A DNA stretch of 64,000 bases from the NCBI GenBank assembly GCA_963722525.1, contig CAVRMM010000002.1, forward strand, positions 3,335,096 to 3,399,095. Direction: 5' to 3'. This document shows, piece after piece, positions 22,536 through 54,819 of this stretch. The number at the start of each line of letters is the position of its first letter. The first letter of the stretch is position 1. Position numbers and translations under genes: made by a program. Source of the stretch: an uncultured Actinomycetes bacterium. Lineage in GTDB: Bacteria; Actinomycetota; Thermoleophilia; Gaiellales; F1-60-MAGs149. The notes below the pieces were generated by a model. It was not told the DNA's origin. It saw only the letters and a list, made by a program, of their open reading frames with translations, and did not search any database.

Positions 22536-23036
22536 TTACGCCAGCCGGCGGGCACGAGTGCCAGCGGTGCGGCGCGGCGGCCGCGGGAAGCCATCGGTGG
22601 GCCAGCCGATGTGCACGATCCCGATCACCCGCTCGCCGTCGCCCAGGCCGAGGAGCGTGCCCGACGCCGGCTGCAGCAGCGAGCTCGGCGTCCGCCAGTA
22701 CGACGCGATCTCGCGCGCCCGGGCCGCCAGCATCACGTTCTGGATCGCGCACGCGCACGCGGCGTAGTCCTCGCGCGCGGTGTCCTCGTCGGTGTCGACC
22801 ACCTGCGTCACGACGATCGCCGTCGGCGACCGGGTCAGCTTGCCGTCGTCGGTCGCGGCCACGAGCTGCCCGATCGTGACGGGGCCGATGACGGTGAACC
22901 GCCACGGCTCCGTGGTGTGGTGGTTCGGGGCGTAGACGGCGAGATCGAGCAGCTCGTCGATGACGGCGGGATCGATCGGCTCGGGCGTGAAGCCCTTCAG
23001 CGTCCGGCGCCCCCGGATGACCTCGTCGATCGTCAT
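22536..23036 (-). CDS. nitroreductase-family FMN protein (166 aa)
   Basis: ATG at 23036 overlaps the upstream stop. RRTLKGFTPEPI...APNHHTTEPWRF...ACAIQNVMLAA are typical nitroreductase motifs. Confidence 0.85.
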   Translation of the reverse strand: MTIDEVIRGRRTLKGFTPEPIDPAVIDELLDLAVYAPNHHTTEPWRFTVIGPVTIGQLVAATDDGKLTRSPTAIVVTQVVDTDEDTAREDYAACACAIQNVMLAARAREIASYWRTPSSLLQPASGTLLGLGDGERVIGIVHIGWPTDGFPRPPRRTAGTRARRLA

Positions 23037-24310
23037 CGCACGACGCGGTGGATGAACGCCTTGTTGTCGTTCGTGTTCCACCGGGTGACGTAGACCCCAG
23101 TTCGGGCGACGGCGGTCGTCCAGAACAGGCGCGGCGTCGCGACGCGCAGGCGGGACCGGCTGCGGTTGCCGGGCGCGATCCGCCGTTCGTAGACGCGCGA
23201 GGTGCCGAGGTATTGCTCGACCCAGACCAGCACGCCGCCGCGCAGCGAGGGGTTCGAGAGCAGCTTCCGCCGGGAGCTCCGCACCGTGCTGACGCGGCCG
23301 GTGCGGACGTTGCCGATCAGCAGCCGCGAGCTCGTCATGCTGGTCTTGTGCCAGACGGCGAGCGAGCGGTCGATCGACGGGCGGCCCAGGTCGTCGGCAC
23401 TTCCGATCACGTCGAGGAACTTCCGCTTGCCCGTGCGCATGTCGATGCTCATGACGCGCTTGCGGGCGCCCTGCGAGAGGACCGCCACCAGGTAGGGCCA
23501 GCTGACGGCGGGCTTCGACCAGCCGCCGGCCAGGTGGGTGACGGGCGCGCGGGTGCGCCACTTCACGACGGTCACGCCGGTGGGCTCGTGGTACGCCAGG
23601 TAGTCACCGCGGATCGAGGGCTCGGAGCCGCCGGCGAACGTCAGCGGCGGCCCGGCGGGCGGCCGCACGATGACCGAGGTGGCGCCGCTGTCGGCGCGCT
23701 GGGTGTAGGCGAGTGTGCCGTCGTCGGCGACGGCGGGATCGAGCTGGCTGCCGGGGCCGAGGGCGAGCTTCGCCGCACCCGCGGGCGCGACGAACAGGGC
23801 GAGCGCGAGCGCAGCCAGCGCGAGGGCGTTGACGCGGCGCATCGGGCGGTAGAGCATCGCCATCCGGTCGATGAAGGTCGCCGGCAGCGACGCGCCGGCG
23901 ACGCGGCCGATGCCGAAGGCGGACAGCGCCAGCACGGCGGCCGTCGGACCCGACGCGGCGGCGGCGACGGCGACGACCAGGAACGTGGCGACGGGCTGGT
24001 AGGTGAGGACACCGACGCCGAGGCCCGCGCCGTACCCGAGCGACCAGACGGGCAGCGGCAGCTCGTGGTGCCAGCGCTCCGGCACCTGGCGCCGCGACTG
24101 GGGGACCGGCAGGCGCACGAGGCCCGACTCCCGCAGCACGCCGGCGATGGCGAGCGCGATCGCGACCGGCACCAGCGCCGCCGACCCGAACACGCCGAGC
24201 AGGAGCCCGACCAGCGCCGCGATGCCGATGGAGCCGGCGGCGAAGAGGAGCAGTGCGAGGGCGGTGCGGCGGCGTGTCCCGCACACGGCGGGAGAGATGG
24301 TCTCGACCAT
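23033..24310 (-). CDS. polytopic membrane protein (MauF/CcdA-like N-domain, tentative) fused to an extracytoplasmic domain of 5-6 blade-like repeats
   Basis: ATG 24310 lies 5 nt after GAGGAG (alternative GTG at 24316). About 4-5 TM spans, then a repeated P-[AS]-[VIL]-x4-5-[LV]-[AV]-[YWV] unit every 35-45 aa (DPAVADDGTLAY, EPSIRGDYLAY, KPAVSWPYLVAV, RPSIDRSLAVW, NPSLRGGVLVW). Confidence 0.6.
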   Translation of the reverse strand: MVETISPAVCGTRRRTALALLLFAAGSIGIAALVGLLLGVFGSAALVPVAIALAIAGVLRESGLVRLPVPQSRRQVPERWHHELPLPVWSLGYGAGLGVGVLTYQPVATFLVVAVAAAASGPTAAVLALSAFGIGRVAGASLPATFIDRMAMLYRPMRRVNALALAALALALFVAPAGAAKLALGPGSQLDPAVADDGTLAYTQRADSGATSVIVRPPAGPPLTFAGGSEPSIRGDYLAYHEPTGVTVVKWRTRAPVTHLAGGWSKPAVSWPYLVAVLSQGARKRVMSIDMRTGKRKFLDVIGSADDLGRPSIDRSLAVWHKTSMTSSRLLIGNVRTGRVSTVRSSRRKLLSNPSLRGGVLVWVEQYLGTSRVYERRIAPGNRSRSRLRVATPRLFWTTAVARTGVYVTRWNTNDNKAFIHRVVR

Positions 24311-24319
24311 CGACACTCC

Positions 24320-24388
24320 TCAAGGGCTCCAGGCGCCCGAGACGCCCGCGATCAGGCCGGCCGTGCAGAGCGCGATGATCGTCAGCAC
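24320..24388 (-). CDS. candidate 22-codon hydrophobic micro-ORF (MLTIIALCTAGLIAGVSGAWSP)
   Basis: The GTG overlaps the last codons of the MauA-like gene (ccGTGcTGA). 20 of 21 third-codon positions after the GTG start are G/C, which looks coding. Its TGA lies inside the GAGGAG ribosome-binding site of the next gene. Confidence 0.3.
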   Translation of the reverse strand: MLTIIALCTAGLIAGVSGAWSP

Positions 24389-24963
24389 GGCAGACCGGTG
24401 TCGTAGTAGGCCACGCAGAAGACGTTGCGGCGTCCGTAGCAGTAGCCGTGCAGCGCCGCATCGCCGTTCACGCGCCGGGGATGGTTCGCGCAGCAGTCCA
24501 CGAGCTTGCGGATCTGGCCGCCGCAGCACCGGAACCACGAGCCCTGCATGCGCGCCTCGAGGTGATAGCGCTCGCGCACCCAGTCCTCGCAGATGCGCGT
24601 CCGTGGGGCGCGGGCGAGCAGCGACCCGTCCGGGCCCCGTAGGCGCTTGCCGGCGTTGTTGACCGGGTAGCCGTTGCGGTCGATGAGCCGGCCGAGGTTG
24701 TCGATGCGCTTGCCGTCGCTCGTACGCAGGGGCTTGCCCTGGCGGTCGATGCGCGGCTGCCGGCCGGGATGCGGGCAGGAGCCCGTGGTGAAGATGTGGC
24801 CGCAGAAGTGGTACGACTCCGCCTCCTCCGGCTCGACGGCGGCGGCGACCATGCGGCCGCCGGTGAGGGCCAGGACCCCCACGCCGACGCGCGCCAGGAA
24901 GGACCGTCGCGTGCCCGCGCCCGCAAGGCGCGCCGCGAGGTCGGCCGGGTCAGGCCGCCGCAT
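24382..24963 (-). CDS. TAT-exported methylamine-dehydrogenase light-chain-like (MauA-like) Cys/Trp-rich protein
   Basis: Twin-arginine signal GTRRSFLARVGVGVLAL. 10 Cys in the mature part. FCGHIFTTGSCPHPG and GSWFRCCGG...DCC resemble the conserved C-x-CCGG-x4-CPPG and SW...DCCG segments of MADH/AADH small subunits as I recall them. Confidence 0.6.
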   Translation of the reverse strand: MRRPDPADLAARLAGAGTRRSFLARVGVGVLALTGGRMVAAAVEPEEAESYHFCGHIFTTGSCPHPGRQPRIDRQGKPLRTSDGKRIDNLGRLIDRNGYPVNNAGKRLRGPDGSLLARAPRTRICEDWVRERYHLEARMQGSWFRCCGGQIRKLVDCCANHPRRVNGDAALHGYCYGRRNVFCVAYYDTGLPC

Positions 24964-25790
24964 GCGCCAGCCTCGCCCGGCCGAGGGCCAGCAGGCCCTC
25001 GATCTCCTCCAGCGTGTTGACCGTGCCCTTGGCGACCGTGACGCCATCGCCGAGCGCGACCATGAACGGCGTGCCGGGGACGCCCCAGCGCTCGATCGCC
25101 GCCTCGTCCTCGACGTCGTACACGAGGCGCACCGCCAGGCCCTCGCGGGCCAGCGCGCGCAGGGACGGCTCCAGGTCGTGGCACACGCGGCAGCCGGCGC
25201 CGAGGAAGGCGACCAGCTCCTCGCCGGAGCGCTCGATGCCGTCCAGCTCGGGGGCCTCGACGCCGAGCTCCGGGCCCTCCTCCGCCAGCTCCAGCGCGTG
25301 CCGCGGCGCGATGCGCAGCGCCAGCACACCGACCTGGCGGTACAGCGCCAGCACCAGCACGGCGAGTGCGGCGACGGCCATGCCGAGCACCACGATCGCC
25401 GACACGAGCAGGGCATCGCGAGACGGGGTGGGCGGCGCGATGGCGACGAGCGCGGCCAGCACGGCCAGGCCGAGCGCGCGGGCGATCAGCAGCCAGGCGG
25501 GGCGATCCGCTCCTGCACCGAAGCAGTTGCAGGGCAGAGCGCGTGCGCCGCGGGCCCGCGCGATCACGAGGTGGGTGGCGAACGCCAGCATCAGGAGCGC
25601 CGCAGCGGCGCCGGCGAGTCGCGGCGCGATGCCGCTGACGAGCCAGACCGCGAGGGTCAGCTCGACGGCGATCAGTGCGACCGTCGGGACGAGCCGCCAG
25701 ACGGCGCACGACGGCTTTGCGATCGCGCAGCTTTGCTACCGCCGCCGCCAGGAGTACCCCGGCGACGACGAGTCCGAGTACCGTCGTCAC
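24950..25790 (-). pseudogene. MauE-like membrane protein fused to MauD-like thioredoxin-fold domain; one frameshift near 25690
   Basis: The N-terminus VTTVLGLVVAGVLLAAAVAKLRDRKAV continues in another frame as VPTVALIAVELTLAVWLVSG...LPCNCFG (MauE/DoxX-like). The C-terminal domain has CxxC (GCRVCH) and a cis-Pro motif VPGTPF. Start is GTG 25790 or TTG 25832. Confidence 0.65.
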
Positions 25791-25854
25791 ACTCGCCCTT
25801 TCTTCGGTCTCGCGGAGGACCCCTCCCGTCAATTATGGGTACATTCGCCCGAAC

Positions 25855-26298
25855 ATGCCTGCTTCTCGCACGTTCACGTACGACGTCGGGCTCACCTGGG
25901 ACGGCGGCCGCGCCTCGACCGCCACTGCGGGCGAGCGACCACCGATCCGCGTCGCGCCGCCGGAGGACTTCCCGTTCGGTGATGCCGCCTCCTGGAGCCC
26001 CGAGCATCTGTTCCTCGCGTCCCTGTCGTCCTGCACCCTGCTGGCGTTCCTCGCGCACGCCGCGAACGGCGAGATCGACGTCGACTCGTATACCGCGGAG
26101 GTGTCCGGCACGATCACGCGCCGCAAGGCGGACGGCCGCTACGCGTTCGTCCAGGTCGTGCTGTCGCCCCGGGTCGTGGTCGGTCCCGGCCAGGCCGATG
26201 CGGCACGCGAGCTGACGCCGAAGGCCGAGCGCGACTGCTTCATCTCGGCCGGCACCACGGCCGAGATCGACGTGCGCTGGGAGATCACCGAGCGATGA
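25855..26298 (+). CDS. OsmC/Ohr-family peroxiredoxin-like protein
   Basis: ATG at 25855. Two conserved Cys contexts (LSSCTLLAF and ERDCFIS) typical of the OsmC family. Confidence 0.8.
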   Translation: MPASRTFTYDVGLTWDGGRASTATAGERPPIRVAPPEDFPFGDAASWSPEHLFLASLSSCTLLAFLAHAANGEIDVDSYTAEVSGTITRRKADGRYAFVQVVLSPRVVVGPGQADAARELTPKAERDCFISAGTTAEIDVRWEITER

Positions 26299-51486: not shown

Positions 51487-52025
51487 CTGAACACCCAGAG
51501 TGCCGCACCTACGGCACAGAGGACGTTCGTGACGGACCGTCGCCGGCCTTCCGGCAGCATGCTGACGAGCAGGACGACGAGCGCGATCTCCGCGACGAGG
51601 CTGCCGAGATCGAGCAGCCCGACCGACTCGGCGCGACCGTTGAAGTCGGCGTAGACCGCCTGGCCGGGCCCGTGCAGGGGATCGGTGAAGCGGAGCGACG
51701 GAGCCGGTCCGGGGCCGAACGGCATTCCGACGGTGCGGCTCATCACGTAGAGCAGCGTGCTCGTCACCGTTCCGGCGATGGCCGCGTAGAACACCGACGT
51801 CGTCGGGCGCAGCGCCACCGCGATCGCGATCGCCGCGCCGGCGATCGCGATCGCGGCCATCAGGGCGCCGTACCCCCACCACACCTGGGCCTGCTGGGCG
51901 ATCAGCACCGCGTGCACGCCGGCGGCGACCGAGGCCAGCGTGATCGCCGCGAGTCGATTCGCGGGGATCACGGCCGGCTTGGTCGTCACCGCCGCGGTGG
52001 TGCTGGTGGCGGAGACGCTGCTCAC
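51465..52025 (-). CDS. integral membrane protein, unknown function (about 5 TM), between the MCO gene and lepB
   Basis: 186-aa ORF. Its GTG overlaps the MCO stop (GTGA) and its 3' end overlaps the lepB start by 22 nt. Confidence 0.55.
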   Translation of the reverse strand: MSSVSATSTTAAVTTKPAVIPANRLAAITLASVAAGVHAVLIAQQAQVWWGYGALMAAIAIAGAAIAIAVALRPTTSVFYAAIAGTVTSTLLYVMSRTVGMPFGPGPAPSLRFTDPLHGPGQAVYADFNGRAESVGLLDLGSLVAEIALVVLLVSMLPEGRRRSVTNVLCAVGAALWVFRWTGVIA

Positions 52026-53605
52026 AGCGGGTCGTCCGGCTCCGACGAGTTGTGCTTCCCGCGCCAGCCGAGCGGGTCGTCACCGGGATACTCCGGATCG
52101 ATGACCTCGTACTGGGTCATCATGTCGTGGTCTTCGTGCACGAGGTTATGGCAGTGCATCATGTACTTGCCGCACCCCTCGAAGCGCATGATCACGCGCA
52201 CCGACTCGTTCTCGCCGAGGTAAACCACGTCCTTCGGACCCTTCTCGTAGGCGAACGGCGGCTTGCCGTTCCGGTCGAGGATCCTGAAGTCGACCAGGTG
52301 GATGTGCAACGGGTGCTGCCAGCCGCCCGACAGGTTGGTGAGCTCCCAGATCTCGACGGTGTCCTTGATCGGGCGGGCCTCGGTGAGGGTGAAGTTGCTC
52401 TTCACGACGTCGTCCCAGAAATGGCCGTTGATCGCCCACATGCCCTTCCGGCGCGTCAGTGGGATCTTGCGCGTGGCGACCGACTCACTGACCTGCAGGT
52501 TCATCGCCGGGCATTCCGGGTCGAGCACGGCGGGCACCTCGTTGTTCGACGGGTCGAACGCGTCGTCGACGACATCGAACGCCATGATCTTGTCGATGTT
52601 GGCGAAGCTGAGGTTGTTCTTGGGGTTCCTGTTCTTCAGCGTGACGCGCTGTCCCGGCTGGTATTTCGAGAAGTCGATCACGACCTCGTAGCGCTCGGCC
52701 ATGATGTGGCGCATCGACTTGACCGACTGCGGGTACGGCATGAGGCCGGCGTCCGTGGCGATGACGGTGAGGGGGTCACCCGTCGACAGGCTGTACTCGT
52801 AGGACCGGGAGACGGAGGCGTTGAGGATCCGGAAGCGGTACTTGCGGCGCTTCACCTTCATCGTCGGCCACGGCACGCCGTTCACCATGATCACGTCGCC
52901 GTACATGCCCGACTGGTCGTTGTTGGTGAACAGGAACTCGCCGTTCTTCTTGAACATCGCGTCCGAGATGATCAGCGGCACGTCGTACTCGCCCTTCGGC
53001 AGCGGCAGCGACTGCTCGTGTGCGTCGTGCAGCTTGTACATGCCGGCCAGTCCCATGGTCACGTTCTCGGCCGTGTGGTGCACGCCGTGGTCGTGATACC
53101 ACAGCGTGCGCGCGTGCTGGTGATCCGGGTACACGTAGTCCTTGTACTCGCCGGGGTAGCAGATGTCGCTCGCATAGCCGTCGTACTGCGGCAGTGAGGC
53201 GGAGCCGTGCAGGTGCACCGACGTCCAGGGCGTGTACTTCAGCGTCGGGTGTTTCAGCGGCAGCTGGTTGATGAAGCGGACCTTGGCCGTCCGGCCCTGG
53301 TTCGCGACGATCGTGGGGCCGGGGAAGATCCCGTCGTAGCCCCAGATCGTCGTCTGGTAGCCGGGCAGGATCTCCGCCTTGGCTTCCTTCATGTAGATGC
53401 GGTAACAATCCTCACCGTCGTGAACCGAGACAGGGGTTGCAACGGGAGGGATGCGAAAGGGAAGCGTGAACGGCTTCGGCAGGAGGCTCGACGGCATCCG
53501 GCTATCAAGGACTGAGGCGGCGCTCGCGGCTCGGTGGACGGGGAGCGCGAGTGCGGCAGACCCGAACAAACCAACCTTGAACGCTTCGCGGCGGGTGTAC
53601 TGCAA
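52022..53605 (-). CDS. TAT-exported three-domain multicopper oxidase (CotA / bilirubin-oxidase-like)
   Basis: TTG at 53605, 7 nt after GGAGG. TAT signal TRREAFKVGLFGSAALALP. All four Cu motifs are present: SVHLHG, WYHDHG, HPLHIHL, HCHNLVHEDHDMM. Intact, 527 aa. Confidence 0.9.
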   Translation of the reverse strand: MQYTRREAFKVGLFGSAALALPVHRAASAASVLDSRMPSSLLPKPFTLPFRIPPVATPVSVHDGEDCYRIYMKEAKAEILPGYQTTIWGYDGIFPGPTIVANQGRTAKVRFINQLPLKHPTLKYTPWTSVHLHGSASLPQYDGYASDICYPGEYKDYVYPDHQHARTLWYHDHGVHHTAENVTMGLAGMYKLHDAHEQSLPLPKGEYDVPLIISDAMFKKNGEFLFTNNDQSGMYGDVIMVNGVPWPTMKVKRRKYRFRILNASVSRSYEYSLSTGDPLTVIATDAGLMPYPQSVKSMRHIMAERYEVVIDFSKYQPGQRVTLKNRNPKNNLSFANIDKIMAFDVVDDAFDPSNNEVPAVLDPECPAMNLQVSESVATRKIPLTRRKGMWAINGHFWDDVVKSNFTLTEARPIKDTVEIWELTNLSGGWQHPLHIHLVDFRILDRNGKPPFAYEKGPKDVVYLGENESVRVIMRFEGCGKYMMHCHNLVHEDHDMMTQYEVIDPEYPGDDPLGWRGKHNSSEPDDPL

Positions 53606-53645
53606 GGGGGGCCCTCCGGTTAGGCGATCGGACGAGGACCAACGT

Positions 53646-53670
53646 AGGTTCTTAACCTTTGGATAACCTT
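53646..53670. promoter_or_regulatory. AGGTT/AACCT palindrome plus third half-site upstream of the MCO gene
   Basis: AGGTTCTTAACCT at 53646-53658, then ATAACCTT at 53663-53670, in an AT-rich stretch 40-65 nt upstream of the TTG start. Confidence 0.3.
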
Positions 53671-53748
53671 CGGACTGGTACCACCGCGCGCAAATGCGTG
53701 CGCCGGCTCGCAGAAACCGGCGTCGAGCGCTCGGTGCGCCACCCGCGC

Positions 53749-54819
53749 TTACACGTTGAAGCGCACGTTGACGACGTCGCCGTCCGCGACCGTGTAGTCG
53801 CGGCCCTCGACGCGCATCACGCCGCGCTTCAGAGCCTCGGCGTGCGTCTTCGTCAACAGCATGTCGTCGGTCGTGATGACCTCGGCCCGGATGAACCCGC
53901 GGGCGATGTCGGAGTGGATCTTCCCGGCCGCCTCGACGGCGCTGGATCCGCGCCGCAGCGGCCACGCGCGGGCCTCCTTCGGGCCGACGGTGAAGAACGT
54001 GATCAGCTCGAGCAGGCGGAAGGCGGCGCGCGCCACCCGCGGCATGCCGGCCTCCTCCTGCCCGATCTCGGCCAGGAACGCGGCCCGGTCCTCGGGGTCC
54101 TCCATCTCCGCCAGGTCGGCCTCGAAGCGCGCGGCGACCGGCACCACGTCGGCGTCGCCGGCATATGCCTGCAGCGCCGCCACCGCCTCGGCGTCGCCCT
54201 CCTCCGAGGTGTTCGCGACGTAGACAAGCGGCTTCAGCGTCAGCAGGTCGACGCCCGGCGGCACCGGCTCGCCGAACAGCCGCGCGGGCTGACCGCCGTC
54301 CAGGTGCGCGAGCAGCCGGCCGAGCACGTCGGCCTCGGCGGCCGCCGCCTTGTCGCCCGTGCGGGCGGCCTTGGCGAGGCGCTCGATGCGGCGCTCGACG
54401 ATCGCGTGGTCGGCGAGGATCAGCTCGAGGTCGACCGCCTCGGCGTCGGCGACCGGATCGACGCGGCCGTCGACGTGGAACACGTCGGCGTCGGGAAACG
54501 TGCGCACCACGTGGAGGATCGCGTCGGTGGCGCGCAGGTGGCCGAGGAACTCGCCGCCGAGCGATCCGCCCTTCGCGCCGCCGCGCACCAGGCCCGACAC
54601 GTCGGACAGCTGGATCGTCGCGTAGATGGTCTCGCGCGACTCCGCCACCGCGGCCAGATCGTCGAGCCGCGCGTCGGGCACCGGCGCGACGCCGATGTTG
54701 GCCGACGACTGCGTGGCGGCGTACGCCGTCACCTCCGCGCCCGCGTTCGTGAGCGCGTTGAAGACGGAGGTCTTGCCGACGTTGGGAAGGCCGACGATGC
54801 CGATCTCGAGCGAGGCCAT
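53749..54819 (-). CDS. ychF: redox-regulated ATPase YchF (Obg-family)
   Basis: Intact 356 aa. G1 GIVGLPNVGKTS, DVSGLV, C-terminal TGS-like domain FFTVGPKEARAW...GDVVNVRFNV. Confidence 0.95.
   Translation of the reverse strand: MASLEIGIVGLPNVGKTSVFNALTNAGAEVTAYAATQSSANIGVAPVPDARLDDLAAVAESRETIYATIQLSDVSGLVRGGAKGGSLGGEFLGHLRATDAILHVVRTFPDADVFHVDGRVDPVADAEAVDLELILADHAIVERRIERLAKAARTGDKAAAAEADVLGRLLAHLDGGQPARLFGEPVPPGVDLLTLKPLVYVANTSEEGDAEAVAALQAYAGDADVVPVAARFEADLAEMEDPEDRAAFLAEIGQEEAGMPRVARAAFRLLELITFFTVGPKEARAWPLRRGSSAVEAAGKIHSDIARGFIRAEVITTDDMLLTKTHAEALKRGVMRVEGRDYTVADGDVVNVRFNV

Follow-up and report, generated by a model that had tools for sequence, protein, structure and literature searches.

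A 64,000-nucleotide stretch of genomic DNA from an uncultured bacterium of the Gaiellales (Actinomycetota; Thermoleophilia; contig CAVRMM010000002.1), referred to here in its whole length as the window, encodes on its reverse strand a two-domain envelope protein in which a five-helix membrane domain of the MauF type is followed by an extracytoplasmic, TolB-like six-bladed β-propeller. Here, combining profile alignment, structure prediction and a survey of related genomes, we find that the gene is the third of a three-gene Thermoleophilia cassette holding a counterpart for every domain of the mauF-mauB-mauE-mauD-mauA core: a MauE fused to a MauD-like thioredoxin, a MauA-like precursor with a long twin-arginine translocation (TAT) leader, and the MauF–propeller fusion itself. 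The cassette is an undescribed variant of the Mau system. We propose, with a probability of about 0.5, that the fusion protein is a putative membrane-tethered partner of the small MauA-like protein, standing in for the heavy chain of methylamine dehydrogenase (MADH), or an assembly platform for it, and we infer that it is the propeller that receives the small protein.

Mutants of Methylorubrum extorquens and Paracoccus denitrificans in mauF, mauE or mauD are left without the MADH small subunit. To our knowledge, MauF has gone without an assigned mechanism since the 1990s, when the mau clusters were sequenced; our literature search returned no account of one, nor of a MauF–propeller architecture, and the results retrieved by mau gene names were genome papers. 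In the classical order mauF-mauB-mauE-mauD-mauA, as seen in the P. denitrificans cluster, mauB begins right after mauF. This plasmid-borne cluster served as our MauF reference, together with an alignment of 27 MauF proteins; Pfam and NCBIfam contain no curated MauF model.

The gene under study, hereafter the target, and its parts lie as follows, residues being numbered in the 427-residue frame of the listed open reading frame (ORF), which begins at GTG 24316.

23033–24310, reverse strand: target gene, MauF-like membrane domain plus six-bladed β-propeller (ORF, Shine–Dalgarno box, database identity and model).
23762–24316, reverse strand: membrane domain, residues 1–185, five crossings (hydropathy, model helices, hhalign, and lysine and arginine counts).
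24281–24283, reverse strand: codon of Cys12, the sole invariant cysteine (81 of 81 sequences).
24002–24115, reverse strand: arginine-rich cytoplasmic loop and start of transmembrane helix 3 (TM3), residues 68–105, RLPVPQSRRQVPERW...PLPVW..YGAGLGVGVLTY, a signature common to MauF.
23036–23761, reverse strand: extracytoplasmic six-bladed β-propeller, residues 186–427 (DSSP strands, predicted local distance difference test (pLDDT) scores and Foldseek).

The ORF that the initial annotation had singled out, 23033–24316 on the reverse strand, is real and intact. Its true start is likely to be ATG 24310, giving 425 residues: a GAGGAG box lies 8 nucleotides 5′ of this codon, and the resulting product is identical to the called database protein P0001. 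The surrounding DNA has a G+C content of 72–74%. Pfam and NCBIfam scans recognized no family in the window protein, and the members of its family (232 homologues were found in the database) are, among the entries listed, unnamed, hypothetical or loosely labelled as CcdA, TauE/SafE or TolB. An alignment of 81 family sequences was used as AlphaFold2 input, for conservation and for residue counts; the model obtained from it has a mean pLDDT of 90.

The membrane domain, for which the initial annotation had counted four or five hydrophobic spans in the first 180 or so residues, contains five by hydropathy, at about residues 17–43, 47–63, 89–122, 125–142 and 158–180, and the AlphaFold2 helices coincide with all of them. 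The initial annotation had noted a faint likeness of the N-terminal ISPAVCG to the CcdA/MauF-type SPC motif; the domain as a whole proves to be MauF-like. In hhalign, the domain matches the single P. denitrificans MauF with a probability of 95.8% (E 6.7e-9) and the 27 MauF proteins with 98.0% (E 2.2e-13), over about 150–185 residues, and greedy extension pairs target residues 1–179 with MauF residues 70–277, reaching the MauF C terminus. Judged by profile alignment, the membrane domain is thus homologous to MauF residues of about 70–277.

Two motifs, each invariant in both alignments and mutually aligned, are shared by the target family and MauF: an RxPxPQxRxQVP loop and a YGxxLGxxxLTY helix. 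The loop–TM3 signature of the target aligns to MauF FLRVPYPQRRAQVPHDAR...YGLSLGLDYLTY in hhalign, with the family sequence RLPxPQSRRQVPERW on MauF RVPYPQRRAQVPHDAR and YGAGLGxGxLTY on YGLSLGLDYLTY. Within this region Q77, V78, P79, W82, P87, L88, W91, Y95, G96, G98, L99, G100, G102 and T105 are invariant in the family. Cys12 lies in an N-terminal peptide, MVETI[ST]PAVCG, that is nearly invariant in the 81 homologues. It falls on the SPCG of MauF in the greedy extension, where confidence is near zero and gaps of 2 and 13 residues are needed; the peptide T-I-S/T-P-A-V-C-G may be the counterpart of that invariant MauF motif.

The distribution of positive charge orients the domain in the membrane. 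Lysine and arginine residues average 3.4 per sequence in the N terminus and the start of TM1, 4.3 in the loop at 64–88 and 4.6 in the loop at 143–157, compared with 0.6 in each of the two remaining loops and 0.37 in the 15 residues that follow TM5. By the positive-inside rule, this pattern gives an N-in, C-out topology with five crossings and so predicts that the propeller lies outside the cell. A propeller in the cytoplasm, which the initial annotation had named as the arrangement that would speak against its proposal, is therefore not what the charges of the 81 sequences indicate; they put the propeller and the TAT-exported protein on one side of the membrane.

The repeat region downstream had been read as a β-propeller with five units and a degenerate sixth, and the model agrees with both parts of that description. 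In it, 23 β-strands (pLDDT 96–98) within residues 190–426 are arranged in six four-stranded blades that start at about residues 190, 231, 266, 314, 352 and 396. In each blade, the first strand has the pattern x-P-[SA]-[ILV] and the next the pattern [LV]-[AV]-[YWV]. Since the repeat units listed earlier each map onto strands 1 and 2 of a blade, the domain is six-bladed and the degenerate sixth unit is a genuine blade. Foldseek returned 553 PDB matches at E ≤ 0.001, the best of which are the six-bladed propellers of TolB (E 3e-8 to 1e-6, 17–19% identity; root mean squared deviation 3.6–4.5 Å over 223–238 columns); the MADH heavy chain is absent from the top 50. No Pfam or NCBIfam repeat family, PD40 and TolB included, reaches threshold for the propeller.

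Because the alignment with MauF runs to the MauF end, the propeller is attached where MauF stops, and its fusion point corresponds to the place that mauB occupies in mauFBEDA.

Upstream of the target, on the same strand, lie the two other genes of the cassette.

24382–24963, reverse strand: small TAT-type exported cysteine-rich protein, 193 residues (homologues, invariant columns and hhalign).
24950–25790, reverse strand: MauE (DsbB-like, CNC) fused to a MauD-like thioredoxin (CRVC) (Pfam MauE and Thioredoxin_3; NCBIfam MauD).

The initial annotation had proposed phylogenetic co-occurrence of the target and small-protein genes as a check, and the two are found together wherever the locus could be tested. 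In a scan of one genome per species, at least 551 genomes carried a relative of the small protein, and we examined the best 80; these 80 are all Thermoleophilia metagenome-assembled genomes (MAGs) and belong to the orders Gaiellales and Solirubrobacterales. All testable loci have the order MauE–thioredoxin, small protein, MauF–propeller. Immediately upstream of the small-protein gene, all 80 encode the thioredoxin part, and the target profile matches 72–155 nucleotides downstream of that gene in 79. The whole-target profile recovers the target as a single full-length ORF in 70 of the 80; in 7 loci, mostly from long-read MAGs, frameshifts split it, and in 1 it is partial. A contig end cuts two loci, one of which is the sole locus without a target match. 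Genes flanking the cassette vary between lineages, as seen in four annotated loci (L002, L003 and L004 among them).

The small protein, which carries the twin-arginine motif TRRSFL, has ten invariant cysteines, invariant W128, W143, D156 and Y174, an HFCGH motif and a C-terminal cysteine. It has 685 homologues, with 61–80% identity among those listed, and is better conserved than the target, for which most of the listed homologues share 36–49%. Against one MauA sequence, the long leader alone aligns (hhalign 81%). Against a nine-sequence alignment of six proteobacterial light chains and three Thermomicrobium MauA-like proteins, the match extends over the leader and the first cysteine segment with a probability of 96.4% (E 1.1e-9), pairing residues 6–85 with MauA 6–125 and HFCGH..GSCP with WRHC..NCPPG, and placing C54 on β-Cys29 and C63-P64 on β-Cys46-Pro47. 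More weakly, the C-terminal halves align as GSW143FRCC..VD156CC with ASW57VASC..RD76CC (E 0.013, and 0.00099 against the Thermomicrobium MauA-like sequences), which puts W143 on the quinone-bearing β-Trp57 and D156-C157-C158 on β-Asp76-Cys77-Cys78, of which the aspartate is catalytic. The invariant Y174-C175 seems, by eye only, to stand at the place of MauA IIW108C.

These local matches do not join into one. The small protein has an insert of about 55 residues with no MauA counterpart and ten cysteines compared with twelve in MauA; with the insert cut out, only the W..CC..DCC segment aligns to mature MauA (E 0.029), and hhalign gave no full-length collinear alignment of the two. Pfam and NCBIfam scans of the small protein gave no usable match, neither its sequence nor its profile found more than chance matches in the PDB, and the top 150 matches of a profile search of a representative library were family fragments and frameshift fusions. 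On the alignments, the small protein is a divergent relative of MauA that lies outside the curated MauA family. The insert itself (24598–24762, reverse strand; residues about 68–122) is built of short D-x-x-G-x-P units (IDRQGKPLRTSDGKRIDNLGRLIDRNGYPV...) and is the region of highest model confidence within the small protein; a profile of it retrieves, in addition, long proteins built of repeats that are DUF3659-like and plectin-like.

In the MauE–thioredoxin protein of the window, the MauE part has a CNC site followed by FG and the thioredoxin part a CRVC site. A 2026 preprint describes MauE as an enzyme that forms disulfides, resembles DsbB and is able to replace it, uses a CXC site and is often fused to thioredoxins (8% of cases) (10.64898/2026.03.05.709764). 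The MauE–thioredoxin and small-protein genes of the window overlap by 14 nucleotides in different frames. Three database proteins of 429–455 residues (P0364, P0400 and P0415) carry the MauE–thioredoxin and the small protein in one chain; these joined chains may be frameshift artefacts or, possibly, real fusions.

We propose that the cassette works in four steps. The small protein would be exported, and the MauE–thioredoxin module would oxidize its ten cysteines; the membrane-tethered propeller would then receive it, as docking partner, heavy-chain stand-in or at least assembly platform, and the MauF-like domain would carry out the same step that it performs for the small subunit of MADH. The complex so formed would lie at the membrane's outer face; the strict co-occurrence of the two genes and the placing of their products on one side of the membrane lend indirect support to a stable complex.

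Several results weigh against this proposal. The propeller has six blades compared with seven in MauB, and homology to the MauB heavy chain, tried as a candidate, was rejected (hhalign probability 0.5%; no PF06433 match). Nor does the propeller show a detectable sequence relation to the propeller-like proteins encoded beside the Thermomicrobium MauA-like genes. It is moreover the fastest-evolving of the three parts, with 23–39% identity outside the three closest relatives compared with 54–69% for the small protein; such divergence fits a scaffold without proving one. None of MauG, MauB, amicyanin and MauJ is encoded within 7 kb in the 80 loci or anywhere in the 64-kb window. The kinship of the small protein to MauA, which the initial annotation had asserted, holds for the leader and first cysteine segment (E 1.1e-9) and, more weakly, for the core (E 1e-3) but does not extend to the curated families: at E ≤ 10, PF02975 matched 0 of 40 family members and TIGR02659 did not match the small protein of the window, whereas P. 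denitrificans MauA and the Thermomicrobium proteins, used as controls, do match the MauA models. A Foldseek search of the PDB with the small-protein model found nothing below E = 1, the model being a weak basis for a fold negative, with pLDDT values of 61–96 per 10-residue block in the mature part and a poor leader part. From the comparison by eye, the second tryptophan of tryptophan tryptophylquinone (TTQ) seems to be replaced by tyrosine.

The window copy of the MauE–thioredoxin gene counts on the same side. DNA alignment with L003 and L004 shows it to be broken by one extra base in 25690–25700, near 25696–25700. Its tblastn match to intact orthologues, which are 268–280 residues long, ends at 25681; the reading frames differ, and the initial helix of MauE, read from GTG 25790, is out of frame with the rest of the gene. 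The break marks a pseudogene or else a fault of the assembly. In several related MAGs from long reads, the reading frame of the target gene is broken in a similar way.

With MauG absent and the second tryptophan seemingly lost, the small protein is unlikely to be a TTQ enzyme or a true TTQ amine dehydrogenase. A new kind of membrane-anchored protein with a cross-linked cofactor, in which a MauA-descended small subunit matured without MauG would sit on a MauF-fused propeller instead of a free heavy chain, with W143 kept as the quinone tryptophan, D156 as the catalytic aspartate and the invariant Y174 in place of the second tryptophan, is a long shot.

The target might instead be a maturation factor or chaperone only and no stable subunit: its MauF-like domain would serve the small protein as MauF serves MauA, and its propeller would transiently hold the precursor or its long leader while export, disulfide formation or leader removal proceeds, before a soluble product is freed; this is possible, if on balance unlikely. 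The homology of the membrane domain to MauF, the conserved MauA-type leader of the small protein and the fold match to TolB-type propellers, which bind peptides and proteins, are all in keeping with it, and the much faster divergence of the propeller than of the small protein is easier to square with a loose, transient contact. MauF is, furthermore, an accessory rather than a structural protein, since some TTQ clusters work without it, as in Novosphingobium (L087). Canonical MauF, however, manages without a propeller (none of the 120 best MauF homologues exceeds 306 residues), and the fusion point mirrors the mauF–mauB junction, which suggests that the propeller takes the place of the absent heavy chain; the cassette encodes no other candidate partner.

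A CcdA/DsbD-type thiol–disulfide transporter, bringing reducing power across the membrane to mend wrong disulfides of the ten-cysteine client and forming a reducing arm opposite the oxidizing MauE–thioredoxin, with the propeller as substrate adaptor, is doubtful. Weak DsbD_2 (PF13386) matches in 18 of the 81 relatives (best E 2.9e-6), the CcdA label on some database entries, the invariant cysteine in its SP..CG context and the cysteine-rich client would all suit such a role. The window protein itself, however, has no DsbD_2 match at E ≤ 1 in the Pfam scan, and the two-cysteine definition of CcdA/DsbD is not satisfied, as only C12 is invariant: column 116 holds cysteine in 59 of 81 members and alanine in the window protein. 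The propeller has no conserved cysteine in the 81 sequences and thus could not relay electrons as the periplasmic domains of DsbD do.

That the target is a TolB-like envelope-maintenance protein adjoining the other two genes by chance, as its TolB fold match and the TolB label on one database entry might hint, is very improbable and close to refuted by synteny, given an order and spacing fixed in every testable locus of the 80 genomes while the flanks change, a MauF-like membrane domain, the lack of a TolB N-terminal domain and the absence of Tol–Pal genes from the gene calls listed for the four annotated loci.

A further gene follows downstream of the target.

22536–23036, reverse strand: nitroreductase-family gene, 166 residues (PF00881, E 2.8e-22).

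Its ATG overlaps the TGA of the target (ATGA), which suggests translational coupling of the two. We rejected it as a conserved member of the cassette, since its linkage is limited to the closest relatives: L003, L004 and L006–L008 have it, and the other 77 loci do not. In the window, a small flavoprotein of the nitroreductase family lies near a possible cofactor-bearing protein. On the other side, at 25675–26298 on the forward strand, a gene for an OsmC/Ohr-family peroxiredoxin is transcribed divergently from the cassette, an arrangement shared by L003 and L004 and not by more distant loci. In L002, a cupredoxin gene (Cupredoxin_1/Copper-bind; 2381–2908) lies on the opposite strand, 1.6 kb upstream of the cassette; none was seen in the other three annotated loci, and a P. 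denitrificans amicyanin query found nothing in the 80 loci. Elsewhere in the window, positions 52001–54000 have a G+C content of 0.643, compared with 0.70–0.76 in the rest.

A natural fusion of MauF to a propeller at the position of mauB is a hint, in the style of a Rosetta stone, that MauF works next to a propeller subunit, and the cassette offers a compact three-gene system in which MauF action beside such a subunit can be tested. It extends Mau-type machinery (MauE, MauD, MauF and a MauA-like protein) beyond the methylotrophic Proteobacteria, in a large family whose proteins are essentially without domain annotation, and is in line with the recent proposal of a general role for MauE in forming disulfides (10.64898/2026.03.05.709764). 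Should the small protein carry a modified tryptophan, it would represent a new quinocofactor variant made without MauG; should it prove to bear a cross-linked cofactor, the fusion would be the first physical indication that MauF acts at the joining of heavy and light chains.

Among characterized proteins, the closest relative of the membrane part is the MauF of the mauFBEDACJG clusters of P. denitrificans and M. extorquens, with which the target shares a homologous core, two motifs and a setting beside MauE, MauD and a MauA-type precursor; a lone membrane cysteine in an SP(xx)CG context may be a further feature in common. Unlike MauF, a stand-alone protein of about 275 residues, the target lacks about the first 70 MauF residues and adds a C-terminal propeller of 240; its cassette is without MauB, MauG and amicyanin in the 80 loci, and it belongs to Thermoleophilia (Actinomycetota) rather than Proteobacteria. 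MauB (PF06433) is, similarly, a β-propeller outside the cytoplasmic membrane, encoded with a MauA-type small protein, but it is soluble and seven-bladed, whereas the target is six-bladed and membrane-tethered, and the two have no detectable sequence similarity.

The C-terminal propeller of TolB has the same number of blades and is the best structural match over the whole domain, and its repeat signature has the same proline-initiated first strand and aromatic end to the second strand. The target differs from TolB in having no PD40 Pfam match, no TolB N-terminal domain and no Tol–Pal context, and in its fusion to a polytopic membrane domain. With CcdA/DsbD_2 (PF13386), some members of the target family share distant sequence similarity, and the inferred helix arrangement of the target is similar, with the C terminus outside; DsbD likewise has a periplasmic domain after its membrane core and an external C terminus. 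Two cysteines are conserved there, however, and one in the target, whose appended domain does not have the thioredoxin fold.

A parallel in gene arrangement is found on the megaplasmid of Thermomicrobium roseum (NC_011961), where small MauA-type proteins are encoded beside anchored proteins of about 400 residues with weak propeller signals. In this locus (L086, 6871–15778), an anchored protein of 391–434 residues with weak BamB/PQQ_2 signals is encoded beside each of three small MauA-like genes, of which the PLSDB gene table lacks two; a fourth such protein follows, and a further membrane protein of about 200 residues without a Pfam match lies among these genes. The anchored partners have one N-terminal helix and no MauF domain, and homology of the target to them, considered as a candidate, was rejected as comparison showed no similarity. 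The small proteins of Thermomicrobium bridge MauA and the window family through FCGH, GAW.CC, DCC and the C-terminal cysteine; unlike the window family, they match PF02975 or TIGR02659 and keep the second tryptophan. The Thermomicrobium pairs look like a separate, uncharacterized MauA-like/propeller lineage outside the Proteobacteria.

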